A DNA stretch of 64,000 nt from an uncultured Actinomycetes bacterium (GCA_963701825.1 CAVPBG010000002.1:731669-795668), one strand, 5' to 3'. Shown: positions 547-61,114, counted from the stretch's first letter. Notes: generated by a model from the letters alone, not told the origin. Numbers and translations: made by a program.

Positions 547-1824
547 TTACGGCTGGTCGAGTCGGGCGATGCGGTTCGACGCGCTGCGGATCTCGCCCTC
601 GAGCCAACTCGTGAGCCAGAAGTTCGCCCGTCCGTGCTCGGCGAGCAGCTGCTCGTGTGCACTCCGGTATGCCGTCAGCGCGCCGCGATGTTGCGGGTCG
701 GTCGGCGAGCACGAGCTCGCACAGTCGCACCGCGGCGAGTGCGTCGGTCGAGACGAGTGCCTGGCGCACGTGTCGCGACCGCATCGGCCCCGCCCGCCAG
801 ATCGATCAGCTCCGCGGCCGCGAATTCCGGCGCCGCGCCGTAGAGGTCGAGCGTCGAGTGCTGGTGGTACCAGCCCGCGTACGACTCCCAGATGGCGCGG
901 GCACTCCAGTCGATGCGGCCGTACGCCTCGCCGACCTCCAGGTGCTCCGGCAGGCGTGATCTCGCGCATCGCGGTCCACACGTCCTGACCGTCGTTCATC
1001 GCCGCGACCGTCGCGTCGTGCACGTACAGCGTCGCGTCGCGGATGCGTTCGCATTCGGCGCGAACGGTCGCCGCGCCGCGCACCGGTCCGTGATGGCCGA
1101 GCAGGAGCATCTCCGCGTCGAGGTCGATGACCGTCTGCACGGAATCGACGAACGCGAGCGCGCTGCGCATGCGGTCGCCGCGCATCGTGACGAGGTTCGG
1201 GAAGTGGCCGAACAGCGCGGAGAACATGTTGCCGACGAGGGCCACGCCGTCGTCGGGGAGCCACACGACCAGCGAGTCGATCGTCTCGCCGCCGGGCACG
1301 CTGATGAGCTCGAACCGGCGCCCGCCGCACTCGATCAGGTAGCGCTCGGCGAACGTCACGTCGGGTTCTGCGGGCTTGGCGAGCGGCGGGAGCTCGACCT
1401 CGTCGCCGCGCACGAAGTCGGGTTGGCCCATGACGTCCGCGAAGAACGGCAGCGATCGCCGGATACGCAGGCCGTGGATGCGGACGTCGTCGGCCTGGCA
1501 GGTTGCGATGTTGGATTGCGCGACCAGAACGGTCCCGTCCTCGCGGAAACGATCGATGCCACCGATGTGGTCGGTGTGGCTCTGCGTGAGCACGATGTAG
1601 CGCGTCGGCGCGGTCGTGACCGCGTCGTAGTTGCGCTTGTGGGTGCGGCCCTCGAACCACATACCGGTGTTGACCACGACGCGGCCGTCGTCGGTGGTGA
1701 CGAGGTAGCTGCTCGACATGCCGGGCGAGCACCAGATGCCGTGACCCATGTCGATCGCGGCCGGAGCCGACGCCGGTCCGACTGCGAAGAAGTCGGGCTG
1801 GTTGCGTACATAGTCGCTGGTCAC
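547..1824 (-). pseudogene. MBL-fold metallo-hydrolase with alkyl-sulfatase-like C-terminal helical domain; apparent frameshifts
   Basis: HTDHIGG metal motif sits in the 547..1959 frame. A GTG at 1824 is preceded by GGAGA. The sensible protein continues through three frames: MREIT | LPEHLEVGEAYGRIDWSARAIWESYAGWYHQHSTLDLYGAAPEF.. | QALVSTDALAAVRLCELVLADRP | DPQHRGALTAYRSAHEQLLAEHGRANFWL. That implies net +1 shifts near 955, 768 and 700. Confidence 0.75.
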
Positions 1825-1864
1825 GTGATCTCCACGGCTGAGTCGGCTCGGCAATCGACGATAT

Positions 1865-2560
1865 ATGACATCGTGCAAAGATGACGCCGTGAGTCCCGGG
1901 CCGGCGAGCAGCGAGTTCCCCGACGGGTTCTTCGCCCGCGGCGACGAAGGCGACGACACGCATTTCTACGCGTTCCCGCGCTACGTCACCCACATCGACG
2001 ATGGTGCGATCGCCGCGGTCGGCGCGTTGTACGACGAGCTCGGTGTACGCGGCGAGGTGCTCGATCTGATGAGCTCGTGGGTATCGCACTTCCGGGCGCG
2101 TCCCGACGCGCTGACGGTGCTCGGTATGAACGCCGACGAGCTCGCCGCGAATCCGCAGGCGCAGGCGTGGGTCGTGCACGATCTCAACGCGGATCCCGGT
2201 CTGCCGTTCGCCGACGACGCGTTCGATCACGCAACCTGTTGCGTCTCGGTCGACTACCTGACCCGTCCGGTCGACGTGTTCCGCGACGTGGCGCGGGTCG
2301 TACGCACGGGCGGGCTGTTCGTGTGCACTTTTTCGAATCGGCTCTTCCCGACGAAGGCGATCCGGGGCTGGCTGTATTCGCAGGACGCGGCGCACTGCGA
2401 GATCGTCGCGTCGTATTTCGCGAACGCGGGTGGCTTCGAACCCGCGACCTCCCGCCGGTGCGACACCCCGCTCGGCGGCGACCCGCTGTACGCGGTCTGG
2501 GCCCGCGTCGTCCAAAACCCACCAACAGTGGGCACGCTCACGCACCGCAGCGGTACGTGA
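1865..2560 (+). CDS. class I SAM-dependent methyltransferase
   Basis: 231-aa ORF divergent from the MBL gene. VLDLMSSW, VHDLN, CCVSVDYL and GGLFVCTFSN resemble Rossmann-fold methyltransferase motifs I-IV. An alternative GTG start lies near 1889. Confidence 0.85.
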   Translation: MTSCKDDAVSPGPASSEFPDGFFARGDEGDDTHFYAFPRYVTHIDDGAIAAVGALYDELGVRGEVLDLMSSWVSHFRARPDALTVLGMNADELAANPQAQAWVVHDLNADPGLPFADDAFDHATCCVSVDYLTRPVDVFRDVARVVRTGGLFVCTFSNRLFPTKAIRGWLYSQDAAHCEIVASYFANAGGFEPATSRRCDTPLGGDPLYAVWARVVQNPPTVGTLTHRSGT

Positions 2561-2580
2561 GCGTGCCCACTGTTGGTGGG
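2518..2580. terminator. 25-bp perfect inverted repeat (13-nt loop) between convergent genes; likely bidirectional intrinsic terminator or REP-like element
   Basis: Left arm 2518-2542 is cccaccaacagtgggcacgctcacg. Right arm 2556-2580 is its exact reverse complement. The loop is 2543-2555. It overlaps the last 14 codons of 1865..2560 and ends 8 nt before the stop of 2588..3409. There is no U-tract. Confidence 0.6.
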
Positions 2581-2587
2581 CTGGGGG

Positions 2588-3505: not shown

Positions 3506-5070
3506 GTGGGCGTAGTGGGTGATTTGCTCGACGCCTATAAGCCGATCGACGCGTGGGACGAGATGTTCGACGCGGAAGGCGAAACGCGGCTCGACTACCG
3601 CGCGCTCTATGAGCATGTGCAAACGCTGTCGAAGCAGGACTTCGACGAGCGGTGCGTCACCCGCGACCGCGTCTTCCGCGACCAGGGCATCACGTTCGCG
3701 CACTCGGGCGAGGAGCGGCCGTTCCCGCTCGACCTCGTCCCCCGGGTCATCTCCGCGACCGAGTGGTCGCTGATCGAGCGGGGTGTCGCGCAGCGTGTGC
3801 GTGCGCTCGAACGATTCCTCGACGACGTGTACGGGCCGGGCGAGATCATGCGGGCGGGGGTCGTTCCCCGGCGGCTCGTCGTCACGTCGTCGCACTTCCA
3901 CCGCGCGGCTTGCGGCGGAATCGCGCCGCCGCGCGGCGTGCGCGTGCACGTGGCCGGCATCGACCTCGTACGCGACGCGGCGGGAAAGATGTGCGTGCTC
4001 GAGGACAACATCCGGATCCCGTCGGGGATCTCGTACGTCGTCGAGAACCGGCGGGCGATGACCCACGTGTTCCCCGAGCTGTTCGCCGCGCACCGCGTGC
4101 AACCCGTTTCCGACTATCCGGCGCGGCTCCTGCAGACGTTGGTCGCAACCGCGCCGCGCGGCGTCGACGACCCGCGCGTCGTGTTGCTGACCCCGGGCGT
4201 GCACAACGCCGCGTACTTCGAGCACTCGTTCCTCGCGCGGCAGATGGGTGTCGAGCTCGTCGAGGGTCGCGACCTCGTGTGCCGCGACAACGTGCTCTAC
4301 ATGCTCACGACCGGCGGTGAGGAGCGCGTCGACGTGGTCTATCGCCGCGTCGACGACGAGTGCCTCGACCCCCTCCACTTCGATCCCACGTCGATGTTGG
4401 GCTGCGCGGGCATCGTCAACGCGGCGCGCGCGGGCAACGTCACGATCGCGAACTTCCTCGGCAACGGTGTGGCCGACGACAAGGCCGTGTATCCGTACGT
4501 GCCCGCGATGATCGAGTTCTATCTCGGTGAGCGGCCGCTGCTCGCGAACGTCGAGACGTTCATGCTCGAAGACGACGAAGTGCGCTCGTGGGCGCTCGAT
4601 CGTCTCGACCAGCTCGTGTGGAAACCGGCCGACGGATCGGGGGGCAAGGGGATCGTCATCGGGCCCCGCGCCGACGCCGAGGCGCTCGAAGCCGTGCGCC
4701 GGGCCGTCGATGCCGCGCCCCGATCGTGGATCGCGCAGGTTCCGGTGGCCCTCTCGACCGCGCCGACGTATGTCGACACGGGCATGCGACCGCGCCACCT
4801 CGACCTGCGCCCGTTCGCGCTCAACGACGGCGAGAACATCTGGGTCGTGCCCGGTGGCCTCACGCGCGTCGCGCTCGAACGAGGGCAGTCTGGTCGTCAA
4901 CTCGAGCCAGGGCGGCGGGCTCGAAGGACACGTGGGTCCTGGCGCCCGACGGCGCGGAGATCGAGCACGAGACGACGGATCTCGACGGCGAGATCGAGTG
5001 CGAGCCCTTGGCGCGCCAGCCGTTCGACATGTTGGTCGGCGCGCCCGAACAGGCGGCCCAGCAACAATGA
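3506..5070 (+). pseudogene. circularly permuted type-2 ATP-grasp protein (COG2308-like); apparent frameshifts
   Basis: About 455 aa are clean in the 3506 frame. The conserved C-terminus is then split across frames: GGLTRVAL | NEGSLVVNSSQGGG | SKDTWVLAPDG...QQQ*. That implies two net +1 shifts near 4878 and 4919. The stop is at 5068-5070. Confidence 0.85.
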
Positions 5071-5083: not shown

Positions 5084-6021
5084 GTGCTGAGCCGCATCGC
5101 GGAATCGCTGTACTGGCTCGGCCGCTATGCGGAGCGGGCGGAGGCGACGGCGCGGATTCTCGACGTCTACTCGCACGCGTTGTTCGAAGACCGCGTCGGC
5201 GGCGAGGAGTCGGCGTGCCGGCGCCTCGTCGAGGCGATGGGTGCCGCGGAAGCGGCTTCCCTCATGGAAGTCGAGACGAACATCGAGTCGTTGGTCGGCT
5301 TCTTCGTCGACGATCCGCGGTTCGCGGGTTCGGTGGTCCGCTCGCTCGAGGCGATGTGGGAGAACGCCCGTGGGGCACGGGAGGCGATGTCGTCGGAGAT
5401 GTGGGGGAGCATCAACACCACCCACAGCGCGCTCGACGCCCGGCGCGGCCGCTCGATGTACGCGCAGCACGGTTTCCTCGGCGTGGGTCCGCGACCGCGC
5501 CGCGATCGTGTCGGGCCTCGCCGACGCCACCATGAGTCACGACGACACCTGGCGCTTCATCGTTCTCGGTCGTTCCCTGGAACGCGTCGATCTGACCGTG
5601 CGTCTGCTCTCGACGCGGCTGGGCGACGCGTGGGGGAGCGCCGGTTGGGTCGCGACCCTGCGCTGCTGCGCCGCGTACGAGTCGTACCTGCGCACGTATC
5701 GCCGTGGTGTCGAAGGATCCAAGGCGCTCGAGTTCCTGCTTGCTCGACCGGTTGTTCCCCCGTTCGGTGTTCCATGCGCTCGGCGCGGCGGAGACGGTCC
5801 TGTTCGATCTCGATCCCGGGTCCGACCGCCACGGCGCGGGCAGCGAACCGCGCCGCGTCGTCGGCCGTGCGTGTGCCGATCTCGAGTTCATCCGCGTCGC
5901 CGAGCTCGAGCGTTCGTTGCCCGAGCACCTGGCCCGGCTCGAACGTGCGTGCTCGCACTCGCACGACGTCATCGCCAAACGGTTCTTCAACAATGCGGTC
6001 GCGATCCGGTGGAGCGCCTGA
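5084..6021 (+). pseudogene. alpha-E domain-containing protein (COG2307-like); apparent frameshifts
   Basis: The GTG at 5084 gives the family-typical N-terminus MLSRIAESLYWLGRYAERAE. The sensible sequence moves frame near 5480 (..YAQHGFL | WVRDRAAIVSGLADATMSHDDTWRF..) and again near 5742 (..ALEFLL | DRLFPRSVFHALGAAE..). It ends at a TGATG overlap with the next gene. Confidence 0.8.
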
Positions 6022-6864
6022 TGGCCTGGCGCCTGTCGATCGAACACGTCACCAGTTACGAATACGAAGGGGAGGTACTCGCGTCGTACAACGAGGCGCG
6101 CATGAGCCCGGCCCGCGACTCGACGCAGATGGTCCTCGACCATCGCGTCGACGTGCGGCCGAGCGTCCCGGTCATGCGCTACGTCGACTACTGGGGCACC
6201 GAAGTGAGCGCGTTCGACGTGCACGAGCCGCACGAACGGCTCATCGTCGCGTCGCGGTCACTGGTCGAAACCATCGCAGCTGTTCCCGATGTCACCGACA
6301 CCGATTGGGAGGTCCTGTCCGATGAAGACGTACGCGACCGCTTCTACGAATACCTTCACTCGTCGGTCCATGTTCCTGTCGACGACGCATTCCGTGAGAC
6401 CGCGTCGGTTATCTCCGAAGGCCGTACCCCGCGCGAGACCGTCGAGGCGGTCAGCGCGTGGGTCCGCGAGAGGCTCGCGTACGAGACCGGCGCGACCGAC
6501 GTCTCGACGAACGCGCGGGCCGCCCTCGAGCTCGGTCGTGGCGTTTGCCAGGACTTCGTCCATGTCGCGCTCGGCGTTGCTGCGGGCGGCCGGAATCCCG
6601 GCGCGGTACGCGTCGGGTTACCTGCACCCCGATGTCGACGCCGCGGTCGATGCGGCCGTCACCGGACAGAGTCACGCCTGGCTCGAAGCGTGGACGGGGT
6701 CCTGGCAACGCGTCGATCCGACCAGCGGCACCGAGGTCGGAGAACGGCACGTGCTCGTCGCGCGCGGGCGCGACTACGCCGACGTCTCGCCGCTCAAAGG
6801 TGTGTACAACGGACCGGCCGCCCGTTCGAGCGAGGTCCGCGTGACGATCCGCCGCGTCGCCTGA
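6021..6864 (+). pseudogene. transglutaminase-like cysteine peptidase family protein (COG1305-like); apparent frameshift
   Basis: MAWRLSIEHVTSYEYEG is a typical N-terminal Bact_transglu_N start. The catalytic region GRGVCQDFVH | ..ALLRAAGIPARYASGYLHPD...SHAWLEAW is split by one net +1 shift near 6562. Confidence 0.8.
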
Positions 6865-6877
6865 CGCCGCGCCGTCA

Positions 6878-8389: not shown

Positions 8390-8420
8390 CCGGCGGAGTC
8401 TGGCATGCGGGCGTCGTAGC

Positions 8421-8843
8421 GTGGGGGCGATGGACGAAACCGAGATGCGGCGCCGGTTCGCGGCCGCGCCGGTCGCGCGGCTCGCCACGGTGACGCCGGG
8501 CGGGCGGCCCCACCTCGTTCCGTGTTGCTTCGCGCTCGTCGACAACGCCGTGTACTCCGCCGTAGACGCCAAGCCGAAGTCGACCACGGCGCTGCGCCGG
8601 CTCGACAACCTGCGGGCGCATCCGGAGGCCGCGCTCCTGGTCGATCACTACTCCGACGACTGGTCGTCCCTCTGGTGGATCCGCGCCGACGGAGACGGCC
8701 GCGTCCTCGAATCCGGCGCCGAGCACGACGCCGCCATCTCCCAGCTCACCCGCAAGTATCCGATCTACGAGACCGACCCGCCGCCGGGTGCGGTGATCGC
8801 GATTCACGTGCGCACATGGCACGGATGGTCGGCCCGATCCTGA
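8421..8843 (+). CDS. PPOX-class (pyridoxamine 5'-phosphate oxidase-like) F420-dependent oxidoreductase family protein
   Basis: ARLATVTPGGRPHLVPCCFAL...LWWIRADG resembles split-barrel PPOX/F420-dependent proteins. An alternative ATG start is at 8430. Confidence 0.75.
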   Translation: MGAMDETEMRRRFAAAPVARLATVTPGGRPHLVPCCFALVDNAVYSAVDAKPKSTTALRRLDNLRAHPEAALLVDHYSDDWSSLWWIRADGDGRVLESGAEHDAAISQLTRKYPIYETDPPPGAVIAIHVRTWHGWSARS

Positions 8844-8876
8844 CGATTTCGGGTCGGAGGCGCGTCCGGTGCCACG

Positions 8877-9881: not shown

Positions 9882-9912
9882 CGGCCGCGGCCAAAGGTGT
9901 CACGATGTCGGC

Positions 9913-28040: not shown

Positions 28041-29238
28041 CTAGCCGAGCTCGTTGCCGACGATGGAGACGAACGAGACCATCTCGCCGGGGTAGCCGCC
28101 GAGGTTGTGGGTGAGGGCCAGACCCCGGTCGGCATGCGCGATCGTGCGCTCGGCCGGCGCTTCGCCGCGCAGCTGCAGCCACGCCTCGAACACCATGCGC
28201 AGACCGGAGGCGCCGACCGGGTGGCCGAAGCTCTTCAGGCCGCCGTCGGGGTTCACCGGGAGTGCGCCTTCGAGGTCGAACGTGCCGTCGAGCACTTCCT
28301 TCCACGCGGTGCCGCGCTCGGCAAACTGCAGGTCTTCGTAGATGAGGAGCTCGGCGGGCGTGAAGCAGTCGTGCACCTCGGCCATCGCGAGTTGCTCGCG
28401 CGGGTTCGTGATGCCGGCCTGCGCGTACGCGTCGCGTCCGGTGGCGGCGATCTCGGGGAACGTCGTGTAGTCGTAATCCGGGTCGGCGTTGCCCGAGCAG
28501 TTGCCGGCGACGAGCGACAGCGCCTTGATGTAGATCGGCTTGTCGGTGTACTTCAACGCGTCTTCGGCGCGCACGATGATCGCGGCGGCGGAACCGTCGG
28601 CCACACCCGAGCAGTCGTAGACGCCGAGCCCGCCGGCCATGAGCGGCGCGTTGCAGATGGTCTCCATCGAGACCTCTTTGCGGAACTGCGCCCGCGGGTT
28701 ACGCGCACCGTTGTAGTGGTTCTTCCACGCGATGCGGGCGAGGACCTCGCGCATCTGCGCCTCATCGAGGCCGTACTTCTTGCCGTAGCCGGGCGAGCAC
28801 ATTGCGAACATCGCCGCCGCGGTCAGCGTGCGGCCGGTGCCGTCGGTCGGTGTCTTGGCCGCGCCGACGAGCCCTTGGTAGCCGCTGTCCTTGACCTTCT
28901 CGACGCCGATCGCCATCGCCACGTCGTACGCGCCGCTCGCCACGGAGTAGGCCGCGTTGCGCAACGCTTCCGATGCAGTCGCGCAGAAGTTCTCGACGTG
29001 GGTCACCGGCTTGTCGTGCAACTGCAGTGGGCGGGCGAGCGCCATGCCGCTCATGCCCGACATTGCGGTACCGAGCCAGTACGCGTCGATGTCTTCCTTC
29101 TTGAGCCCGGCCGACGGCCAAGGTGGCTTCGTTGGCGTCGACGAGGAGATCGTCGGTGCCCTTGTTCCAGTGCTCACCGAACGGCGTGCAACCCATGCCG
29201 ACGATGGCAACGCGGTCTTTGATGCCGTGCGAACCCAT
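28041..29238 (-). pseudogene. SCP-x/Ltp-type thiolase-like protein; apparent frameshift
   Basis: The N-terminus MGSHGIKDRVAIVGMGCTPFGEHWNKGTDDLLVDANEATLA (29238 frame) joins AGLKKEDIDAYWLGTAMSG... (29210 frame) by a net +1 shift near 29112. NFCATASEAL (active-site Cys), CSGVADGSAA and THNLGG are present. Confidence 0.85.
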
Positions 29239-29265
29239 GTGTGTTCTCCTTCGTTCCGCCCTGTC

Positions 29266-30677
29266 TCAGCGGACCGGGCGGGCCTTCCAGAAGTAGTTGT
29301 GGATCTCGTCCGAGGTGAAGAGCTTGCGGAACGTCATCTCGACGCGGTCACCGATCTTCAGCGTGTCGGCGTCGACGTCGGTGAGCTCGACCGGGAGCCG
29401 ACCACCGCCGTCCCAGTCGACGACCGCGAACGCGACCGGCGGACTCGGCGAGTACGCGATGCGGTCGATGGTGAGCAGCGCGATCGTGCCCTGCACGTCG
29501 GCCATCGGCGCGGGCGTCATGTCGTCGACCGCGTCGCCGACGCGCGAGACGCGGGCGGGCGGCATGTGCAGCTCGCCGCTCGTGCGGTCGCGGGAACCGA
29601 CGAACGCGTACTTCCATTCCTCGGTGCGGCCCGACACCGATGCCGAGATGCGATCGGGCTCCGGGCGCCGGGGCGGTTCGATGCGCACTTCGCCGCGCCA
29701 GCAGAGGAACTTTCCGTACGTGATGTCGGAGGCACCGTTCGATCTGGGCCGCGACCAGTGCGGGCCGGCGCGGTACGACGTGACCGCCTTCGTGGCGCGG
29801 AACAACATGACATCGGCGCCGTCGGCGAGCACGACCAGCGCGATCACCTGACCGGGTTCGGCGCTCTCGAGCGTGTCTGCGAGGAGCAGCGCCGCGTGCG
29901 CGCGTACCGGTGTTGCCGACCGTCGTGGCGCGATCGTCGACCAGGGCTTCCTTGGCCGTACCGAGCCGGCCGCTGATGGCGCGAGCCGCCCGGGCGTGCA
30001 TGCCGGTGACGATGACGCGTTGGATCTGGTCGGCGGAGAGATCCGTCGACTTCAGTGCCGCGTTCCAGGCCTGCTCGACCAGCGGGCCGTACTTGATCTC
30101 GCCGAAGCGCTCTTCCCAGGCCCGCGACCGCGTCGAGCCCGGAGTGCGCCAACGCTCGAGGAACTCCTCGGTCGTGCTCGCGCCGCCGAGGTATTCGGCG
30201 ATGACGGGGCCGTTCGAATCGTCGCCGATGAGCAGCGCGCCCGCGCCGTCGCCGGTGGCCGACTCGTCGCCACTCGTGGGGAGTCCGCCGCGCTGGTCGG
30301 AGGTGACGAGCAACACGGTGCCGCCACCGGTCGAGCGCGGTGCGCAGCGCGCCGATCGAAGACCGGAGCGCGCCGCCGAAGTCGAAGGCGGCGACGTCGG
30401 TGTCGAGTCGCAACGCCGCGTGCAGCGTCGACGCGTTGTTCTTGTCGAGGTACGCCGGCGACGCGGTCGAGAACCAGAGCGCGTCGGGCGCGGTACCACC
30501 GGGGGCGCTGCGCAGCGCGAGCCGCGCCGCCTCGACACCCATAGTGGTGGTGTCCTCGTCGTAGGACGCGACCGAACGGGTTCCCTTGCCGCCGCCGCTC
30601 CCGAAGGTCTTGGCGATCTCGGACCGTTGAAGGCGCCGGAAGGGCACGTAGCCGCCGGCGCTGATGATGCCTCGCAT
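29266..30677 (-). pseudogene. HMG-CoA synthase/KAS-III-like protein fused to C-terminal DUF35 OB-fold domain; apparent frameshifts
   Basis: Three frame segments are involved: MRGIISAGGYVPFRRL...GALRSSIGALRTAL | GGGTVLLVTSDQRGG...TTVGNTG | AHAALLLADTLESAEPGQVIALVVLADGADV...OB-fold (GTIALLTIDRIAYSP..VELTDVDADTLKIGDRVEMTF). The net +1 shifts are near 30340 and 29900. Confidence 0.75.
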
Positions 30678-36331: not shown

Positions 36332-37581
36332 ATGCGGCTCGGAGACATCGCGAACGAAGAAGCACAGCAGTACGGCAAGCCGCTCGACGGCGTGCGCGTG
36401 CTCGCGGCGGAGCAGATGCAGGCGTTGCCGTACGCGACGCAACTCCTCGCCCGGCTCGGCGCCGAGGTCGTCAAGGTCGAGCACCCGGTGCACGGTGAGT
36501 CGGGGCGGGCGTCGTCGCCGGCCATGCTCGATCCCGACGGCCGCAAGGTCGGCGCCACCTACCTGCGCAACAACTTCAACAAGCGCAGCGTCGGGATCGA
36601 CCTGAAGCTGCCCGAAGGCCGCGAGCTCTTCCTCGCCCTCGTGCCGAAGTTCGACGTCGTCGCCGAGAACTTCAAGCCCGGAACCATGGACCGCATGGGT
36701 CTCGGTTACGACGTGATCTCGAAGACCGATCCCCGCGCCATCTACGTGTCGATCTCGGGCTTCGGCAACACCGTCGAGACGCCGTACCGCGACTGGCCCG
36801 CGTACGCGTCGATCGTCGAGGCGATGTCGGGTATCTACGACTACCGCCATCCCGACGAGCCGCCGGTGACGATTCCCGTCGGCGCGTTGGGCGACATCAG
36901 CTCCGCGCTGTTCGGCGTGATCGGGATCCTGGCCGCGCTGCGCCACCGTGATCACACCGGGGTCGGTCAGTACGTCGACATCGCGATGTTCGACGCGATG
37001 GTTGCCATGACCGACATCGTCACCAACTTCTGGTCGCTGGGCGTGCGTCCCGAACCGGGCAAGGGGCTCGAGGTCATCTGCGAAGGGTTCCGTGCGTCCG
37101 ACGGTTTCGTCGTCGCGCAGATCGTGCGCGAGCACCAGTTCTGGAACCTGGGCGACCTCGTCGGGCATCCGGAATGGCGCGACGATCCGCGCTTCTCGAC
37201 GCGCGCGGGATGGGCGGCCGCGTCTCGAGTCGGAGATCCGGCCCGCGGTCGACGCGTGGGCGGCGCAAGCACACCAAGCTCGAAGCGGCGCGCGCGCTCA
37301 CCGAGGCGGGGGTGGTCGCGGGCCCGAGCAACCACGCCTCCGACGTGATCACCGATCCGCACGTCGCCGCCCGCCACATGCTCGTCGAGATGCCGCGCAC
37401 CGACGGTGTCTCCGACCCGGTGCTCGTCCCGGGCAATCCGGTCAAGCTCTCGAAGATGAGCGAAGGCCCCGAGACACGCGTGCCGTGGGTGGGGGAGCAC
37501 ACCGCCGCGGTGTTGGCCGCGGAGCTCGGCCTGACCGACGCCGATCTCGCCGGTCTCCGCGAACGCGGCGTCATTTCCTGA
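36332..37581 (+). pseudogene. family III CoA transferase (CaiB/BaiF-like); apparent frameshifts
   Basis: GVRVLAAEQMQALPYATQLLARLGAEVVKVE and DVVAENFKPGTMDRMGLGY are present. The C-terminus is split: ..RFSTRAGWAA | RLESEIRPAVDAWAAQ | HTKLEAARALTEAGVVAGPSN...GVIS*. The net +1 shifts are near 37220 and 37270. Confidence 0.85.
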
Positions 37582-37620: not shown

Positions 37621-38827
37621 ATGGACTTCGATTTCTCGCCCGAGCAGCGCGCCTTCGAACAAGAGGTCATCGAGTTCCTCGACGAGCACGACGACCCCGA
37701 CGTGTTCGACCTGACCCGCGAGAACATGGCGCAGATCGTCGACACGCCCAAGCGCCGCGCCTTCATGGCAGGCCTGGGCGAGCGGGGTTGGCTCGGCCTC
37801 ACCTGGCCGAAGGAGTACGGCGGCTCCGAGGGCGAGGGCGTCTACGAGTACCTCCTCAACGAGCAGCTCGCGGCGCGCGGCGGCCCGCAGATCGGCAAGG
37901 GCGTCGGCATCATCGGCAAGACGCTCATCAAGGAGGCGAGCGAGCAGATGAAGCAGGAGTTCCTGCCGCAGATCCTGCGCAACGACGTGGAGTTCGCGGT
38001 CGGCTACAGCGAGCCGAACGCGGGCTCCGACGCGGCGTCGATGCGGCTCAAGGCCGAGCGCGGCGAACGCGACGGCAAGCCGGGCTGGATCCTCAACGGC
38101 CAGAAGACGTGGACCACCTCCGCGCACTTCGCCGAGTGGTACTGGCTCGGCACGCGCACCGATCCCGACAACAAGCACATGGGCATCACGCTCATGCTCG
38201 TGCCGCTCGACCAGCCCGGCGTCACCATCAAGGGCATCTGGACGATGGGCGACGAGCGCACCAACGAGGTCTTCATCGAAGACGTGTTCGTGCCCGACGA
38301 GTACGTGGTCGGCGAGGTCAACCACGGCTTCCAGTACATCTCGCAGGCGCTCGACCTCGAGCGGTTCACGATGTTCACGTTCTCGCCGATCAAGCAGCGC
38401 CTCGACCTGCTGATCGACTACGTGAACACCACGACGCGCGACGGCGTGCCGCTCCGCGACGACCCGGTGGTCCGCCAGCGGATCGCGCAGCTCGTCACCG
38501 ACGCCGAGGTCGCGCGCGTGCTCGGGCTTGAAGGTGGTCGCGGCGTCGATGAAGGGCGAGAAGGTCCCGGGCACGCCGCCGCCGACGGTCGAGTCGTCGA
38601 AGTACAAGCTGTTCGCCACCGAGTTCTCGCGGCGGCTCGCGAGCGCGTCGATGGACATCGGCGGTCCCGGCACGCAGCTGCGCGTGCGCACGAAGACCGC
38701 GCCGATGGAGGGCCGGGCCGAGTCGACGTACCGCTACACCGTGATCGACACGATCGGCGGCGGCGCGTCGGAGATCCAGAAGAACATCATCGCCCGCCGC
38801 GGGCTCGGTCTCCCGAAGAACTTCTGA
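37621..38827 (+). pseudogene. acyl-CoA dehydrogenase (FadE-like); apparent frameshift
   Basis: MDFDFSPEQRAF.., GYSEPNAGSDAAS and QKTWTTSAH are present. The C-terminal helical domain continues in the +1 frame from about 38528 (..EVARVLGL | KVVAASMKGEK...YTVIDTIGGGASEIQKNIIARRGLGLPKNF*). Confidence 0.85.
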
Positions 38828-38831: not shown

Positions 38832-39992
38832 GTGCTGCAAGGGCGTGACGGTTCTCGATCTCGCGTCGGTCGGCCCGGCCGCGCGCACGTCGCGCTGGCT
38901 GGCCGACTACGGCGCGCGCGTCGTGAAGGTCGGCCCGCCGCCGAAGCAGTCGGGCGTGCAGATCGTGCCGCCGTTCTACGCGTACAGCGGGCACCGCGGC
39001 ATGGAGCGGGTCCTGCTCGACCTGAAATCCGATTCCGGCCGCGACGCGTTCCTCCGCCTGGCCGCGAACGCCGACGTGGTGATCGAGAGCTTCCGGCCCG
39101 GCGTGATGGACCGGCTCGGCATCGGCGACGCGGCGGTGCGCGCCGTGAACCCCGCCATCGTCTACTGCTCGACGAGCGGCTACGGCCAGACCGGTCCGCG
39201 CTCGCAGTGGGCCGGCCACGATCTCAACTACCTCGCGGTCGGCGGCTACCTCGACTGCTCCGGGCCGCGACGCCGACGGTGGTCCCGCGCTGCCCGGGCG
39301 CGACGATCGGCGACGCCGCGGGCGGCGGGATGCAAGCGGTGATCGCGATCCTCGCCGCGCTCGTGCAACGCGCCGCGACCGGCGAGGGCGCGTACCTCGA
39401 CGTCTCGGTCGCCGACGGAGTGGTCGCGCTCATGTCGCTGTACGTCGACGAGTACTTCGCGACCGGCGAGGTGCCGGGTCCGCGCCACAACATTCTCACC
39501 GGCCGCTACGCGTGTTACGACGTGTACCGCTGTGCCGACGACAAGTGGATCGCGGTGGCGGCGATCGAGCCGCACTTCTACGCCAACCTGTGCCGCGCGC
39601 TCGGCTGCGAGCAGTGGCTCGCGCACCAGACCGACGACGCGGTGCAGGACGCGATCCGCGCCGACTTCCGCGCGGCCATCGCCGACTCGGACGCGCGACG
39701 AGTGGGTCGCGCAGCTCGGTCCGGCCGACACGTGTGTGTCGGAGGTGGCGTCGGTTCCCGAGCTCGTGCACGACGCGCACCTGCGGGCCCGCAACGTGTT
39801 CGTCGAGGCGACCGCGCCGGAGCACGGGGAGTTTCGAGCAGGTCGGCTGGGTGCTCGCGGGCATGGACCGCGACCAGCCCGGTCCGGTGGTGCGCGACGC
39901 GACGATCACCGACACCGACGCGCTGCTTGGCAGAGGTCGGCTACTCGGCCGCGGAGATCGCGGCACTACGCGAACAGGGGGTTGCGGCATGA
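38832..39992 (+). pseudogene. family III CoA transferase (alpha-methylacyl-CoA racemase-like); about six apparent frameshifts
   Basis: Sensible segments alternate frames: MLQG | VTVLDLASVGPAAR...GHDLNYLAVGGYLDCSGP | ADGGPALPG | ATIGDAAGGGMQAVIAILAAL...ADFRAAIA | RTRDEWVAQLGPADTCVSEV...EHGEF | EQVGWVLAGMDRDQPG...DALL | AEVGYSAAEIAALREQGVAA*. The shifts are near 38843, 39270, 39297, 39686, 39833 and 39930. Confidence 0.8.
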
Positions 39993-40509
39993 GCGATTCC
40001 GATCTGCCGCCGGACGTCGAGAAGCTGATCGACCAGGTGCAGTACGAGGAGACCGGCGAGTTCCCGGTCGAGCAGCGGCTACATCTGGACGACGTGCTCG
40101 TCGGTCGAGAACGGCAACCCGCTGTTCTGGGACGACGATGTCGCCGACGAGATCACCGACGGCCCGATCGCGCCGCCGACGATGATCTCGGTGTGGTTCC
40201 GGCCGCACCAGTGGGCGCCGGGCCGCACCGAGCCCGCGGTGCCGCTGCAGGTGCACTTCGACCTGAAGCGAGATCTTCGAGCTGCCGGAAGCGGTCATGA
40301 CCGACAACACGATCGTGTTCCACGAGCCCGTCCGCCCCGGCGACCGCTTGCGCACGCGCCAGATCCTGCGCTCGGTCAGCGAGCCGAAGACGACCAAGCT
40401 CGGCACCGGCCGGTTCTGGGTGATCGAGGTCGAGTACCTGAACCAGAGCGACGAGCTCGTCGGCGTCGAGTCGTACACCGGTTTCGGCTACCGCCGAGGT
40501 GAGTCGTGA
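39989..40509 (+). pseudogene. MaoC-like/FAS1-like dehydratase N-type hot-dog subunit (ChsH1-like); apparent frameshifts
   Basis: There is an ATGA overlap with the upstream gene. The segments are MSDSDLPPDVEKLIDQVQYEETGEFPVEQ | GYIWTTCSSVENGNPLFWDDDVADEITDGPIAPPTMISVWF...HFDLKR | IFELPEAVMTDNTIVFHEPVRPGDRL...GFGYRRGES*. The shifts are near 40075 and 40270. Confidence 0.75.
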
Positions 40510-40992
40510 GCACCACGGCGACGACCCTCAAACTCGGCGACGTGAAGGTCGGCGACGCGTTGCCCGAGCTCGCGTACCCCGTGACGGCCACGACGGTCGT
40601 GCTCGGCGCGCTCGCGGCGCGCGACTGGCGCCCGATGCACCACGACTACGACTTCGCGGTGAACCGCAACGGCACGAAGGACATCTTCATGAACACGCCG
40701 AACCAGGCCGCCTGGTTCGAGCGGTATCCTCACCGACTGGTCGGGTCCGACCGGCCGGCTCGGGCGGATGAAGTTCCGCATGAAGGGCTCCGTGTTCCCC
40801 GGCGACACGATGGTGCTGGCGGGCATCGTCGAGTCCGTCGAGACCGACGACGTGGGGTGCGGCTGGGCGAACGTGCTCGTGCGCCTCACCGTCGACGGCG
40901 ACCTCAAGACCGACTGCACCGCGCGTATCGCGCTGCCGACCACCGACGACGACAACCCCTGGACCCGCCGCGGCGACCAGTGGAAACCGTAG
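40506..40992 (+). pseudogene. MaoC family dehydratase hot-dog subunit (ChsH2-like, no DUF35); apparent frameshift
   Basis: MSTTATTLKLGDVKVGDALPEL...RPMHHDYDFA...AAWFERY | LTDWSGPTGRLGRMKFRMKGSVFPGDTM.... There is one net +1 shift near 40727. It overlaps the previous gene by 4 nt. Confidence 0.8.
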
Positions 40993-41010: not shown

Positions 41011-42142
41011 ATGGATCTCGATCTCAACGAAGAGCAGGAGATGCTGCGCGAGATGGTGCGCGGCGTCTGCAGCTCGTACGCGCAACCTCGAGACGGTGCG
41101 CGCGCTCGAGGACGATCCCGTCGGGTACCCGGCCGAGCTGTGGAAGCAGATGGCCGCGCTCGACCTGATCGGGCTGATGGTTCCGGCCGCGTACGGCGGC
41201 TCGGAGATGAGCGCGCTCGAAGGCGCGGTCGTCTACACGGAGCTCGGGCGCGCGCTCGCGCCGTCGCCGCATTTCGTCAGCGCGGTGATGGGCGCGGGCG
41301 TGTTGCTGCGGGCCGGGACCGACGAGCAGAAGCAGTCGTGGCTGCCGCGCATCGTCTCCGGCGACGCGATCGTGACGACGGCCTGGCTCGAGCCCGGCAA
41401 CGGCTTCGGCCCGCGCGGCGTGCAGACGCGGGCCGTCGCCGACGGCGACGGCTTCGTGCTCGACGGCGTGAAGTGGCACGTGCCGTTCGCCAAGGCGGCG
41501 ACCGCGATGATCGTGCTCGCCCGGACCGGTGATGCCGACTCCGACGTCGACCTGTTCCTCGTCGATCCGGATGCGGCCGGGGTCACGCTCGAGCAGCAGC
41601 TGACGATCGCGTCGGACACGCAGTACGAGGTCACGTTGGCGGGCGTGCGCGTGCCGGCCGCGGCTCGCATCGGCGCCGCGGGTACGGGCTGGGCCACGTG
41701 GAACGAGACCATGCTCGACGGTGTCGATCATGCTCGCGGCCCAGGCCGTCGGCGGCGCACGCTACGCGCTCGACATCACCGTGCAGTACGCCAAGGACCG
41801 CGAGCAGTTCGACAAGCCGCTCGGCGCGTTCCAGGCGATCTCGCACTACCTCGCCGACGCGGTGACCGCGGTCGACGGCGCCGAGATGCTCGTGTACGAG
41901 GCCGCGTGGGCGCGCGCCGAACGGCAAGCCCGATCGACCGGCTCGCGCCGATGGCGAAGCTGTTCGCGTGCAAGACCTTCCGCGACGTCACCGCGATGGC
42001 GCAGCAGGTGTTCGGCGGCGTCGGCTTCACGGTCGAGTACGACATCCAGCTCTACTTCCGCCGGGCCAAGCAGCTGCAGATCTCGTGGTGGGACGACCGC
42101 GCGCTCGAGGAGCTCGTCGCGGGATCGGTGTTCGGCAGCTAG
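41011..42142 (+). pseudogene. acyl-CoA dehydrogenase (FadE-like); three to four apparent frameshifts
   Basis: MDLDLNEEQEMLREMVRGVCSSYA | NLETVRALEDDPVGYPAELW...TWNETMLDGV | IMLAAQAVGGARYALDITVQYAKDREQF...EAAWARAE | ..PIDRLAPMAKLFACKTF...WWDDRALEELVAGSVFGS*. The shifts are near 41081, 41725 and 41920-41930. The last is either one -1 event or two +1 events. Confidence 0.8.
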
Positions 42143-55592: not shown

Positions 55593-57842
55593 GTGGTTCG
55601 CAGCGGGGCGCCGAGCAACAGCTCCGACGTACGTGAGGCCGAGGGCGAGCCCGAGGTTCCGCCGGTCGTCGTGCCCGAACAGACCGGCGCGCGTCCGTTG
55701 GATCGCGTGTGGCGCTTCACGGGCTGGCTGGCGTTTCTGACGTTCATCGTGCACGTGCTCGCCGCGAACCGGATGCACGTCCCGATCATCCAGGGCGACG
55801 AAGCGGGCTACCTCGGCAACGCGCGCTACATCGTCTCGGGGATCGGCCGCACCCACGCCGGGTACGCGGCGGGGTACAGCCTGCTGCTCGTACTGCCCAC
55901 GCTGCTCAGCCACGATCCGCTGACCGTGTACCACCTCGCGCTCGGGGTGAACGCGCTGTTGGCCGCGAGCCTGCCGGTGCTCGCGGTGTTCCTCGCCCGG
56001 CGGGTGTTCCCGCGCGCTTCGACGACTGCGCTCGTCGTGACCGCGCTGCTGGTCGTGTTGTATCCGGGCTGGTCGACGATCGCGAACATGGCGCTCTCCG
56101 AGAATGCGCTGGTGCCGACGGTGCTGGCCACCGCGTGCGTGATCGCGGTGGCGCGCCACTCGACCTTCCGGTGGTGCGTGGCCGGCGCGCTCGCGAGCTA
56201 TACCTGCGCGGTCAATCCGCGCGGCATTCTCGTCGTGGTCGCGTTCGCCATCGCGGTCGTCATCGCGACCGAGCCCTGGAAGCGACGCGCGCCGGCGATC
56301 CCCGCGCTCGCGGTGGCATTCGTGGGGACCGTCGCGGGCCGCGTGCTCAACATCGCGGTGGCCGGTACCAGCCACGTGGCCGGGGTGAAGGGCGACGCCG
56401 GCGGCCAAGCCCTGAAGCCGTTGCTCCATCCGCACCTCTGGAACGACGCGGCCGCGAACATCCTCGGCCGCGTCGCGTACACCAGCATCGCGACCTTTGG
56501 CGTAGCGATCGCCGGGGCGTTGGTGCTGGCCTTCGCGCTCGCCCGCCGTCCACCGGCCGCGGCCGCGGCCGACGCCTTGTTCCCGGTCGCCGCGTTCGCA
56601 CTACCCGCCCTGGTGCTGACGCTGGTCGTCAGTGCGTTGAGCGCGGTGCAGGTGCCGCTCACGGGAGTCGACTATCTCGTCTACGGGCGTTATGTCGACG
56701 GAGTCCTGGCGCCGGTGCTCATCGTCGGTGCGGCGTGGCTCTTCGAGCAGACGCCGGCCCTCGCCCGGCGCGCCGAGATCACCCGCGCGCTCGTGGTCGG
56801 CGCACTCTTGGCGGTCGTGGTGTTGGCGTTTGCGTTGATACGCCCACCCGCGATCAAAGGTGCGGGACTGAACATCGCGAACGTCCTCGCGCTGCGCATC
56901 TACGTCGTGCATCTGCACTGGTCGCTGCCCGCCGTGTTGCTCGCCGGGGTGGCGCTCACCACGGTGGCCCTGGTTCTCGTCGCGGTCGACCGCCGGCTCG
57001 GCGCCGCGTTCATGCTGACCTTCCTCGCGTTCTCGTCGTGGACCGCGTACAACGACTACGCGGTGCACGATTCGGCCGGGCGCGCGGCGCAGCACGTTTT
57101 GGTCGAAGGCATCGAGCGACTACACGCACTCGGCGTAGATACCTCGTGTGTCATCCGCGACGACGCGACCCCACTGTCGTTGTGGCACATCGCGAACTAC
57201 GAATTCTTCGTACCCGCCTCCGCGTTCCCCGACCCGACGCCGCCGGCGCCGCAATGCGGGCCGCTCATCGTGTCGGCCGACGCGGATGTCGACTCCCGTT
57301 TCCCGGGCGCGCGACCGGTGTCGTTCGAGAACGACATCCCCCTGGGTCTCTGGGTGATCCTGCCCCGTGTTCCCGAACCGGCCCGGGTGGTGATCCTGCA
57401 ACACGGACTCGTGGGCCCGGTGCCGGTGACCGGCGCGCTGCCCGAGGCCGCCTACCGGTCGTCGATCCATGTCGTGCCCGACGCCGCCGGCCGGGGTGGC
57501 CTGCGGCTGCATCTGAGCGTGGTTCATGTCGGCGCGGGCGCGCCGTGGCCCGGTTCGTTGAGCGCGATCCAACCCAAGGGTGTCGGGATCGTCCGCTTCA
57601 TCGTGACGGTCGAGGACACCGCGGGCCAGGTTCGTTACACGGCTCGGTGTCCCGTGCCGCGGACGATGCTGCCGAGTGACGAGACGACGAGCGAGTGCGT
57701 CGTGCAGTTCACGAGCGGCGGCCGCCCGTCGGAGTTGCCGCCCGGCCGGTACAGCGTGCGGGTCGGCCTGATCCAAGAGGGCGTCACGGCGTTCTCGACG
57801 AAGGGCGACGCGAGCGGCGTCACGTCGGTCACAATTCACTAG
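55593..57842 (+). CDS. large polytopic membrane protein, GT-C-type (ArnT/PMT-like) glycosyltransferase candidate with C-terminal extracytoplasmic domain
   Basis: About 13 TM helices are seen. The first loop carries QGDEAGYLGNARY (a DE..Y motif, as in GT-C enzymes). The soluble tail is about 240 aa. 749 aa, intact. Confidence 0.7.
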   Translation: MVRSGAPSNSSDVREAEGEPEVPPVVVPEQTGARPLDRVWRFTGWLAFLTFIVHVLAANRMHVPIIQGDEAGYLGNARYIVSGIGRTHAGYAAGYSLLLVLPTLLSHDPLTVYHLALGVNALLAASLPVLAVFLARRVFPRASTTALVVTALLVVLYPGWSTIANMALSENALVPTVLATACVIAVARHSTFRWCVAGALASYTCAVNPRGILVVVAFAIAVVIATEPWKRRAPAIPALAVAFVGTVAGRVLNIAVAGTSHVAGVKGDAGGQALKPLLHPHLWNDAAANILGRVAYTSIATFGVAIAGALVLAFALARRPPAAAAADALFPVAAFALPALVLTLVVSALSAVQVPLTGVDYLVYGRYVDGVLAPVLIVGAAWLFEQTPALARRAEITRALVVGALLAVVVLAFALIRPPAIKGAGLNIANVLALRIYVVHLHWSLPAVLLAGVALTTVALVLVAVDRRLGAAFMLTFLAFSSWTAYNDYAVHDSAGRAAQHVLVEGIERLHALGVDTSCVIRDDATPLSLWHIANYEFFVPASAFPDPTPPAPQCGPLIVSADADVDSRFPGARPVSFENDIPLGLWVILPRVPEPARVVILQHGLVGPVPVTGALPEAAYRSSIHVVPDAAGRGGLRLHLSVVHVGAGAPWPGSLSAIQPKGVGIVRFIVTVEDTAGQVRYTARCPVPRTMLPSDETTSECVVQFTSGGRPSELPPGRYSVRVGLIQEGVTAFSTKGDASGVTSVTIH

Positions 57843-58979: not shown

Positions 58980-59881
58980 GATTCGCCGATCTCGACGACG
59001 CCGCCCCGCCGGAACCCGACCGCGATGTGCTGCTGCGCGTACGACGGCGCAGTGAGAGTTTGCGGAATCGTCGCCGGCTCCGAATCGCGTCGGTCGTGGC
59101 CTTCGTCGTTGGCGTCGCTCTGGGAGTCGGCGACCTGGCGTTGCACTCCCGCACCCCGGGCCACCGCGTCGCGGTCGGCGGCACTGCACCGTCCCGGCCG
59201 GTCGACATCGCCGGCACATGGACCCCCCGCACCGTCGCCGGCTACGCCGGGCCGATCGACAACTTTGCCTGGCATACAACACCGTTCCTGCGCTTCGACG
59301 GCGTGCACACGTGGAACGGCGCCGACGGCTGCAACAGCATCGGCGGCTCGTACACGCTGCAACCCGACGGCGAGTTCCGAACCGCCGGCGCGGAGGGCGG
59401 GACGCTGGTGCTGTGTAGCGGCCCGACTTTTCCGACCGTCGCGATCTTGCACAACACGACGAGAATCGAACGCACGCCCGAACAGCTGACGTTCATCGGC
59501 GCCCACGGCAAAGTCGTCGCGACCTACGCGCTCGTGCCGAACCAGTCTCAATCGCGCGACTGGGCCGGCGAAGTGAACGACGTTCGCAAGGATGGGCGCA
59601 GCGCGTACGTGTCACAGTCGATCGATGTCGTGAAGCCGGGTACCTACACGCTTGTGTTCGGCCCGCTCAGTCAGGTCGACGACGCGCGCTTTGCGAAGGC
59701 TGGGAACGTCAATGGTGCTGTCGGTGAAAGCGAGGCGGACGACCTGACCTTCGACGGACGGCCGGAACAATGGAACGCCGTGCGCGTGGTTGTAGACGGA
59801 AAGTCGTACCTGCAGATGCCTTATTCCGTCACCGCAGTTCGCACTCGGTACGACGGCTTCCGCGTGCTGCTGCAGTTCTGA
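58976..59881 (+). CDS. putative anti-sigma factor: single-pass membrane protein with META (HslJ-like) domain
   Basis: There is an ATGA overlap with the sigma gene. A cytoplasmic segment, a TM helix (IASVVAFVVGVALGV), and then IAGTWTP..FDGVHTWNGADGCNSIGGSYTL (META motif) follow. Confidence 0.7.
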   Translation: MRFADLDDAAPPEPDRDVLLRVRRRSESLRNRRRLRIASVVAFVVGVALGVGDLALHSRTPGHRVAVGGTAPSRPVDIAGTWTPRTVAGYAGPIDNFAWHTTPFLRFDGVHTWNGADGCNSIGGSYTLQPDGEFRTAGAEGGTLVLCSGPTFPTVAILHNTTRIERTPEQLTFIGAHGKVVATYALVPNQSQSRDWAGEVNDVRKDGRSAYVSQSIDVVKPGTYTLVFGPLSQVDDARFAKAGNVNGAVGESEADDLTFDGRPEQWNAVRVVVDGKSYLQMPYSVTAVRTRYDGFRVLLQF

Positions 59882-59885
59882 GGCG

Positions 59886-61114
59886 TTAAATCCGGTCGAG
59901 CTCCAGCATCTTGATCGCGTTGCCGCGCAGGACCTTGTAGGCGATGTCGTCGTCGAAGTCGGCGAGCATCTTCTCGACGTACTCCTTCGAGTTCGGCCAC
60001 GTCGTGTCGGTGTGCGGGTAGTCGGTCTCGAAGCAGATGTTGTCCTCGCCGACCTCGGCGAGCGAGTGCAGGCCGTGGTGGTCGGCGGTGAAGCACCCGA
60101 AGATGCGGCCGTAGTAGTAGGTCGACGGCGGCTCCGGGATCCGCTCCTTCGAGTGCTGCCAGCGTCGTGCTGCTCCCACACCGTGTCGGCCCGCTCGAGC
60201 GCGTACGGGATCCAGCCGATCTGGCCCTCGGAGTACGCGAGCTTCAGCTTCGGGAACTCGATGAGCTTGCCCGAGAACAACCAGTCGGCCAGCGACGCCA
60301 TCGAGTTGTTGAACGCGAGCGTCCCGCCGACCCCGCCCGGCGCGTCGGGCGACGCGGCCGGGTTCGTCGACGACGAGCCGATGTGCATGCACAGCGTCAC
60401 GCCGGTGTCGTTGCACACCTGGAACACCGGGTCCCATTCGCCGCTGTGGATCGTCGGCAGCTTCAAGTGGTGGGGCAGCTCACTGAAACAGAACGCCCGC
60501 ACACCGCGATCGGCGTTGCGCTGGATCTCCTGCGGCCGCGAGCTCGACGTCCCAGAGCGGCATGATGCAGAGCGGGATGTTCACGCCGCCCGACGGCGCG
60601 CACCACTCCTCGACCATCCAGTCGTTGTACGCCTTCACGCACGCGAGCCCGAGCTCTTTGTCGTCGGCTCTCGTAGAACGTCTGCCCGCAAAAGCGCGGG
60701 AACGTCGGGAACGGCAGCGAGCCGTCGATCCAGTTGCGCTCGAAGTCCTTGACCATGCGGGCGTCGCGGTCGTAACAGCCCGGGCGCATCTCGTCGTAGG
60801 TGAGCGCCTCCATGACCATCTTCGAGCGGTCGAACTTCGACGAGGTCGCCGCCCGGCGTGGCCTCGAGCGGGATCGCGACGAACCGCTTGTGCACGTAGA
60901 TCAGCCGGTCCTCGAAGTACCAGGCGTCGCCCCACAGGCCCTCGGGGTCTTCGGTGTTGACGTACTTCGCGCCGGGCTTGTGCGCGAACGCGCCCCACTG
61001 CTTGCGCTCGACCCGCGGGCCCTGCTCGCGGTACTTCTCCGGCAGCCACGTCTGCCACACGTGCGCGGGCTCGACGACGTGGTCGTCGACACTGATGATC
61101 TTGGGCAGGTCCAT
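59886..61114 (-). pseudogene. amidohydrolase-2 (ACMSD/decarboxylase-like) family protein; about four apparent frameshifts
   Basis: MDLPKIISVDDHVVEP..VAIPLEATPGGDLVE | FDRSKMVMEALTYDEMRPGCYD..FCGQTFYE | ADDKELGLACVKAYNDWMVEEW..LWDVELAAA | EIQRNADRGVRAFCFSELPHH..CMHIGSSS..ERADTVWEQHDA | WQHSKERIPEPPSTYYYGRIFGCF..ETDYPHTD..*. The shifts are near 60838, 60670 and 60533 (all +1) and 60163 (-1). Confidence 0.8.

Follow-up and report, generated by a model that had tools for sequence, protein, structure and literature searches.

Single-base frame breaks in 13 genes of a soil Acidimicrobiia contig: almost certainly consensus errors from Nanopore-only metagenome assembly

Genomes rich in pseudogenes, such as that of Mycobacterium leprae, carry many adjacent genes with interrupted reading frames. 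In genome decay of this kind the lesions are mixed, selection is relaxed, and the lesions are inherited by close relatives. The window analyzed here, a stretch of 64,000 nucleotides (69% GC) from a soil Acidimicrobiia genome, also contains many neighbouring interrupted frames, but mixed lesions, relaxed selection and inherited lesions were not seen in it.

Single-base indels that split normal genes are known from Nanopore-only assemblies as well (Sereika et al. 2022, PMC9262707; IDEEL test). The window resembles these assemblies in that the damage goes with the technology and disappears once short reads or a reference are used for correction. The indels of those assemblies were described as homopolymer-centred, whereas in the window no run of four or more is involved, insertions outnumber deletions by about 8:1, and the extra bases lie at silent variable codon positions. 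It is also known that Flye merges strains of about 98–99% identity into one consensus, and that indels rank among the chief sources of frameshifts there (Strainberry paper, PMC8302730). Under this strain collapse two alleles stand in the pile-up at SNPs and the effect is regional, which fits the clustering in the window. What the same paper describes is collapsed SNVs and indels in general; a +1 shift made of two alleles in tandem is not among its outcomes. Lastly, the loci of the closest relatives, from metagenome-assembled genomes (MAGs) of Microflora Danica (MFD), share the error signature of the window.

The window was compared with 110 related loci by pairwise DNA alignment and then by MAFFT in blocks. 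Thirty-four single-base frame breaks were found in 13 genes, 33 of them extra bases and one a missing base (Table 1). Each break was private to the window against 3–22 related contigs, or else common only to another Nanopore MAG; at the insertion sites, one base of the window has no counterpart in the relatives. A hidden Markov model of GC3 and stop codons, which uses no homology, recovered phase changes on the same strand at the places of the breaks from composition alone. When the 33 bases were deleted and the one base was added, 13 open reading frames with no internal stop were obtained, and 12 of them showed Pfam domain matches, in most cases from one end to the other, through the break sites. 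These results confirm that the 34 frame breaks are truly present in the sequence as given. The part that could be tested by alignment, with at least two relatives, amounts to about 40.7 kb. Outside it, the phase changes of the model fall at stop codons and at the starts of separate genes, and ten ORFs searched against Pfam gave eight ordinary single-frame matches and two without a match.

Table 1. Genes with frame breaks in the window, the relatives that lack the extra bases, and the properties of the corrected products
Gene	Position	Strand	Breaks	Relatives without the extra base	Corrected ORF or protein
Metallo-beta-lactamase / alkylsulfatase-like	547..1824	-	3 extra: 691, 759, 953	3/3 (Illumina) for each	Stop-free; Lactamase_B + Alkyl_sulf_dimr
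Circularly permuted (CP) ATP-grasp	3506..5070	+	2 extra: 4876/4877, 4917	22/22	CP_ATPgrasp_2, 1-374/374
Alpha-E domain	5084..6021	+	2 extra: 5480, 5738	10/10	Alpha-E, 1-294/294
Transglutaminase-like	6021..6864	+	1 extra: 6573	9/9	Bact_transglu_N + Transglut_core
Thiolase-like	28041..29239	-	1 extra: 29116	13/13	Thiolase_N + Thiolase_C_1
ACP_syn_III_C / OB_ChsH2_C (DUF35-type)	29266..30677	-	5 extra: 29737, 29757, 29772, 29904, 30329	14-16 for each	No stop; Pfam matches
Family III CoA-transferase (first)	36332..37581	+	2 extra: 37222, 37266	12/12	CoA_transf_3, 1-366/366
Acyl-CoA dehydrogenase (first)	37621..38827	+	1 extra: 38524	16/16	Acyl-CoA_dh N, M and C domains complete
Family III CoA-transferase (second)	38832..39992	+	6 extra: 38839, 39262, 39296, 39682, 39825, 39926	15-16 of 16 for each	CoA_transf_3, 1-347/366
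Hotdog / FAS1_DH_region (MaoC-like)	39989..40509	+	2 extra: 40074, 40269	16-18	FAS1_DH_region
Second small gene, adjoining the hotdog gene	40506..40992	+	1 extra: 40726	19/19	Stop-free, GC3 = 0.98; no match in Pfam search
Acyl-CoA dehydrogenase (second)	41011..42142	+	4 extra: 41083, 41726, 41917, 41929	17-19 for each	Acyl-CoA_dh domains complete
Amidohydrolase_2	59886..61114	-	1 missing (after 60163); 3 extra: 60531, 60670, 60841	4/4 for 60670 and 60841	Amidohydro_2, 40-288/289

Frame hopping at these places had been proposed from the sequence-only reading, and it was borne out by three independent checks, namely the composition model, the DNA alignment and the ORF correction. The comparison with orthologues and the frameshift-aware alignment that this reading had called for both went the same way: the relatives are without the extra bases and the short-read orthologues run in a single frame, and in tblastn with the protein of the related locus L035 the CP-ATP-grasp gene was followed only by jumping through frames 2, 3 and 1. 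Similarly, by three-frame translation the hotdog gene tracks the single-frame protein of four Illumina relatives (L010, L003, L011 and L015) only via two +1 hops. The predicted bias toward +1 holds for 33 of the 34 events. The total had been put at about 33, close to our count, while the number of affected genes, given as 16, is too high by our analysis. Two junctions had been read as -1. The one at 60163 is a true one-base deletion, where a T present in 4/4 relatives is missing from the window; the one near 41925 dissolves into two +1 events 12 nt apart (41917 and 41929), which jointly mimic a -1. The counts by region agree at 0.7–0.95 kb (three), 4.9–6.6 kb (five), 37.2–41.9 kb (16, against 15–16 claimed) and 60.1–60.9 kb (four). 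At 29.1–30.3 kb, six were found in place of three; the events at 29737, 29757 and 29772 cancel after 36 nt and are easily overlooked because the frame is then restored. The clustering, which had also been noted, was significant, with a variance/mean ratio of 2.0 for the counts per kb of testable sequence (permutation p = 0.0006), and testable stretches of 13.8 kb and 10.8 kb are free of any event.

Some candidates from the screens were set aside. The pairwise HSP screen missed 759, 38839 and 30329, and its ambiguous calls were resolved by the MAFFT blocks, in which about 20 flags turned out to lie between genes or at gene ends, or to be alignment noise that compensates itself. The rejected flags include 10903/10948, 11918, 12539, 13811, 25112, 26279/26291, 27538, 27739/27758, 27991, 51898, 62488 and 63627. 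At 45963 the flag falls within a hypervariable N-terminal stretch, at 44734 on a ribosome-binding site, and there is no frame break at either. Phase changes of the model at about 5064 and about 6008 are gene boundaries, that at 35951 marks where a small EthD-like gene stops, and several between 44 and 59 kb are gene boundaries as judged by the ORF stops against the model segments. Simple thresholding of ORFs by GC3 was too crude, and the model was used in its place.

The frequency of such events differed with the technology behind the related sequences. At the loci of 12 Nanopore-only MFD MAGs, private one-base insertions number 1.07 per kb (150 insertions against 19 deletions in 140.6 kb, so that insertions are about eight times commoner), while for about 38 short-read contigs from this clade the figure is 0.036 per kb (6 in 167.6 kb). 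The window, with 33 insertions to 4 deletions and 0.82 insertions per kb, shows the same ratio of about 8:1. MFD MAGs are the nearest relatives of the window, with L023 at about 90% and L026 and L028 at about 87–88% DNA identity, and in L028 the rate rises to 5.5 per kb. In L001 and in L002 other genes again are split (UvrD, thiolase and ABC ATPase; UvrD, for example, in L001), and the clusters are placed differently from MAG to MAG, with that of L023 at 43.6–47.0 kb, a region without a cluster in the window. The MFD-LR catalogue consists of Nanopore assemblies alone, built with Flye and given a single round of Medaka 1.8.0 polishing, and its authors checked low-coverage MAGs for Nanopore-associated errors (PMC12313526). 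From its error signature and its relatives, we infer that the window is probably also Nanopore-only and a member of this catalogue. The affected Nanopore-only MAGs are GTDB species representatives, and one of them is a closed 4.7-Mb chromosome.

The extra bases are not placed at random. The two-allele test scored 30 of the 33 insertions of the window, and in 26 of these the relatives show, at one column, the two alleles that stand side by side in the window as the extra base and the base next to it (0.38 expected for simulated random insertion, p = 5e-8); the pattern was not seen at 691, 953, 29757 and 60531. At the other MFD loci it was found in 117 of 139 events against 0.35 expected (p = 4e-33). 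In 23/33 events the partner base occupies codon position 3, and 21/24 wobble cases give synonymous readings, e.g., CTC/CTG and GCC/GCG. The run length at the extra base was 1, 2 and 3 in 18, 10 and 5 cases, respectively, which equals the background. The concentration in homopolymers typical of the classical Nanopore error was thus not observed, with no extra base in a run of at least 4, and this points to a different error mode. Inspection of the flanks of the window events revealed no shared motif. In the blocks examined, the exact insertion column was common to different Nanopore MAGs nine times, where about 1.4 would be expected by a hand estimate for the 37.6–42.1 kb stretch. Extra bases at 39682, 39825, 39926, 41726 and 60531 are common to L026 and that at 41083 to L028, which also carries, a few nt away from 41917 and in another column, an insertion of one base. 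Correction of 60531 is required to join two half-ORFs of the amidohydrolase gene.

The broken genes retain the pattern of purifying selection. Their private substitutions are most frequent at codon position 3, followed by 1 and 2 (0.025, 0.010 and 0.006 per site), in the same order as in the intact genes and at rates that are no higher, and selection on them is not relaxed. Private in-frame indels occur elsewhere, as expected under selection. Together with the technology-specific signature, this pattern supports the earlier preference for assembly or basecalling error over biology. It is almost certain that the breaks arose as consensus errors in Nanopore-only metagenome assembly and are not mutations in the organism.

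As for the cause, the assembly would be of the Nanopore-only type, made with Flye and one round of Medaka, in which the reads beneath the contig would come from two very similar strains in some stretches. On meeting a silent SNP, typically C/G at the third codon position, the polisher may write both alleles in tandem (CTC or CTG to CTCG), and each doubled allele would add one base and shift the frame by +1. The bias would be one-directional because each doubled SNP adds a base, the wobble placement without a homopolymer link would arise because the errors occur at silent strain SNPs, and the clustering would follow from the restriction of the errors to stretches in which strain diversity was collapsed. 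We consider this account as a whole, long-read consensus errors that likely pass through a silent strain SNP written twice, to be probable. Our literature search found no description of an error mode in which both alleles are emitted. By hand count, the order CG exceeds GC by about 15:4 among the events, which counts against the proposed mechanism and is unaccounted for by it. The sharing of columns calls for a further factor, for instance context dependence or the cross-recruitment of reads from relatives that co-occur.

The errors may instead be generic low-coverage Nanopore noise, i.e., random residual indels at drops of depth, with no role for strain variants. The MFD authors tie suspect MAGs to lower coverage (PMC12313526), Sereika et al. 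2022 put near-finished quality at about 40-fold coverage (PMC9262707), local depth could drive the clustering, and a few events (691, 953 and 30329) are plain duplications of the adjacent base. We nevertheless regard this source as unlikely, since random insertions would give the two-allele pattern in 38% of cases and 87% was observed, and noise should prefer neither codon position 3 nor synonymous pairs. Moreover, classical Nanopore errors lie in homopolymers and the window events do not, and recurrence at the same column in different MAGs is not expected from noise. Random single-base insertion after assembly, deliberate or accidental, had been another suggestion of the sequence-only reading, and one-directional changes of this kind do fit a simple script. 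It is very improbable, because random insertion fails the tests of allele, wobble and synonymy, would not be expected to cluster, and leaves the identical signature of the public MFD MAG records, including shared sites, unexplained; the extra bases lie at silent variable sites and match the alleles of relatives much more frequently than random placement would give.

Real, very recent, insertion-biased inactivating mutations in the lineage would agree with the presence of the bases in the given sequence and with their concentration in a few operons. On the other hand, nonsense codons, larger deletions and mixed lesions are missing, 33/34 events are +1 insertions, the purifying-selection pattern is kept, and the same signature marks 12 Nanopore MAG loci that are unrelated, while the short-read contigs essentially lack it. 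Other essential-looking genes are broken in each MAG, such as UvrD in L001, and insertion columns are identical with L026 and L028 despite the distance of these loci; if a frameshift were as old as the split from them, the downstream frame could not have stayed conserved. This reading retains hardly any probability and is close to refuted. Its narrower form, an inactivation focused on lipid/CoA-ester catabolism, which the sequence-only reading had kept as a fallback, was not supported, as the broken set also includes the metallo-beta-lactamase/alkylsulfatase-like gene, the CP-ATP-grasp, Alpha-E and transglutaminase trio, and the amidohydrolase. The perfectly conserved downstream frames would also suit genes expressed despite the extra bases, by programmed +1 ribosomal frameshifting or transcriptional slippage. 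This is barely conceivable: the sites have no common motif, in-frame stop, rare codon or homopolymer run, short-read orthologues are in a single frame, and up to six shifts in one 1.2-kb gene are implausible. More generally, if these soil Acidimicrobiia did carry the extra bases in their DNA, wobble-site insertion-biased mutation or lineage-wide tolerance of +1 shifts by recoding would be needed, and the contrast with short-read contigs would then be a coincidence of sampling; we judge this highly improbable.

The preferred reading, consensus error, means that it would be wrong to take these genes for pseudogenes, and that the real genes of the organism are almost certainly intact. The biological weight of the breaks is accordingly low, as the genes are almost certainly ordinary ones, and their value is as a warning on these public MAGs. 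The same error type runs throughout the examined loci of other Nanopore-only MAGs, at rates up to several per kb; at such rates genes are broken up, pseudogene counts rise and pathways, in this case CoA-ester and lipid catabolism, are obscured. If silent SNPs written as two bases are truly the cause, the errors mark collapsed strain diversity, and haplotype-aware or short-read polishing should remove them; meanwhile, frameshift-aware gene calling is advised.

Frame changes were found where the sequence-only reading had placed them. A composition-only HMM, which takes GC by codon position and stop codons as its inputs and uses no homology, gave same-strand phase changes at these places, and in the DNA alignment exactly one window base per site was absent from 3–22 relatives. 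In total there are 34 events in 13 genes, rather than in the 16 genes previously proposed: 33 with an extra base and one with a base missing. When all of the events were undone, 13 ORFs with zero internal stops were obtained. The corrected ORFs gave mostly end-to-end Pfam matches, with full-length CP_ATPgrasp_2 (1–374/374), Alpha-E (1–294/294) and CoA_transf_3 (1–366/366), complete acyl-CoA dehydrogenase domains, thiolase, Amidohydro_2 and further families; the Pfam scan of one small corrected ORF gave no match. The breaks at 29.1–30.3 kb are present as described, but they comprise six events, not the number counted earlier, and three of them cancel within 36 nt. The single −1 break proposed near 41925 proved to be two +1 events. 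The clustering of the breaks was borne out (variance/mean 2.0, p = 0.0006), and two testable stretches, 13.8 and 10.8 kb long, were free of events. In the parts of the window without relatives, phase changes occurred at gene boundaries only, and ten ORFs checked there gave ordinary single-frame Pfam matches (eight) or none (two).

Positions of the frame breaks, shared insertion columns and other features (window coordinates unless stated)
Feature	Position	Remark
Extra bases, first cluster	691, 759, 953	
Extra bases, second cluster	4876, 4917, 5480, 5738, 6573	
Extra bases, third cluster	29116, 29737, 29757, 29772, 29904, 30329	
Extra bases, fourth cluster, first half	37222, 37266, 38524, 38839, 39262, 39296, 39682, 39825	
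Extra bases, fourth cluster, second half	39926, 40074, 40269, 40726, 41083, 41726, 41917, 41929	
Fifth cluster	60531, 60670, 60841	extra bases; one base missing after 60163
Small corrected ORF	40506–40992	no Pfam match
Insertion columns common to different-sample Nanopore MAGs	38639, 39155, 39682, 39712, 39825, 39927, 40139, 41083, 41726	alignment columns
Insertion columns common to window and L026	39682, 39825, 39926, 41726, 60531	
Insertion column common to window and L028	41083	
794-aa protein	16771–19155	about seven copies of the GYWL..DGG.F..G.A.FYGS unit
ABC transporter operon site	~23.8–24.15 kb	5975–9988 in related loci L001/L002
386-aa ORF	30741–31901	no Pfam match; atypical composition; non-coding by HMM
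APH-family kinase	33404–34732	
AlkZ-like DNA glycosylase	34736–35950	
Small EthD-like gene	35947–36234	
HtpX-like protease	42763–43995	query of the genome scan
749-aa ORF	55593–57842	intact; strong coding composition; no Pfam match

The genome scan with the HtpX-like protease yielded 28 related loci, many of them from MAGs of the Microflora Danica long-read catalogue (MFD), and 80 JGI contigs over 0.5–13.8 kb came from a metagenome scan. The nearest relative is the locus L023 (OY970186.1), with ~90% DNA identity across 32.7–54.8 kb. The GC content is 66–71% throughout the window, and its GABA aminotransferase shows at most 89% identity to database proteins, the named matches being Acidimicrobiia MAGs. 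The segment at 30.7–36.3 kb is absent in most relatives, in which the two flanks adjoin directly, and L023 retains 32.7–36.3 kb; the segment looks like an accessory insertion. The window lacks a four-gene ABC transporter operon that in relatives lies between the GABA aminotransferase and SnoaL-like genes. A repeated C-terminal unit is common to two proteins (18.4–19.0 and 46.6–47.3 kb), and the relatives' DNA cross-matches both regions at 67–76% identity. The region at 55.6–59.9 kb is covered by none of the relatives.

The MFD long-read MAGs are Nanopore-only, with Flye as the assembler and a single round of Medaka 1.8.0 as polishing, and their authors checked low-coverage MAGs for errors associated with Nanopore sequencing (PMC12313526). 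Private single-base indels were counted per sequence within the same alignments. Twelve Nanopore MFD loci (140.6 kb aligned) had 150 private +1 and 19 private −1 indels, or 1.07 insertions per kb; short-read contigs (MEGAHIT, SPAdes and JGI; 167.6 kb) had 6 and 10, or 0.036 per kb; and the window (40.3 kb) had 33 and 4, or 0.82 per kb. The window agrees with the Nanopore signature in insertion rate as well as in direction, in support of the artefact reading that had been preferred over biology. The broken genes differ by MAG (in L001 the split gene is UvrD, in L002 thiolase and an ABC ATPase are split), as do the clusters: that of L023 lies at 43.6–47.0 kb, a stretch that is clean in the window. 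In the broken genes of the window, private substitutions amounted to 0.025 per site at codon position 3, 0.010 at position 1 and 0.006 at position 2, as expected under selection and at rates not above those of intact genes, and evolutionary coding-sequence indels, where present, are multiples of three. From the technology signature, the MAG-specific breaks, the maintained selection and the triplet indels, decay is therefore excluded for practical purposes. The same private +1 insertions occur in public MFD MAGs (L023, L025, L026, L028, L012, L014 and L020) at 0.4–5.5 per kb of aligned genes, with 40 in 7.3 kb in L028; among the affected MAGs are GTDB species representatives and one closed chromosome of 4.7 Mb.

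Classical homopolymer errors were ruled out, because the run length at the extra base was 1, 2 or 3 in 18, 10 and 5 cases, like the background, and never longer. In the alignments, the extra base and its neighbour usually correspond to two alleles of one variable column in the relatives, as in GTC/GTG to GTCG, GCG/GCC to GCGC and CTG/CTC to CTGC. Profile-based scoring, with random insertions simulated in the same genes for comparison, showed that this rule held for 26/30 tested events in the window (versus 0.38 expected, p = 5e-8) and for 117/139 in other MFD loci (versus 0.35 expected, p = 4e-33). The partner base was on codon position 3 in 23/33 events, and 21/24 wobble cases gave synonymous readings. 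The simplest reading of these alignments is that a read pile-up held a silent SNP and the consensus step wrote both alleles, which would produce a +1. Such SNPs would point to collapsed strain diversity, a known behaviour of Flye (PMC8302730). Writing both alleles would explain the +1 bias, the absent homopolymer context and the regional clustering. No description of this error mode was found in the literature searched.

Some observations lie outside this mechanism. Four of the 30 tested events did not fit the rule, and three further events were not scorable by it. In the blocks examined, different Nanopore MAGs shared the exact insertion column in nine pairs, above chance (~1.4 by a hand estimate for the 37.6–42.1 kb stretch only). 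Such insertion hot spots suggest either a further influence of sequence context or cross-recruitment of reads from relatives that co-occur. Among doubled C/G pairs at wobble events, the order CG exceeded GC about fourfold (~15 versus ~4, hand count), which may reflect placement of the second allele by the aligner or polisher.

The frame breaks are almost certainly not a biological feature. They are of practical use as a warning, since this error type is frequent in the loci examined here from Nanopore-only MAGs, which are used as species representatives in GTDB, and the proposed doubling of SNP alleles offers a testable explanation for it.
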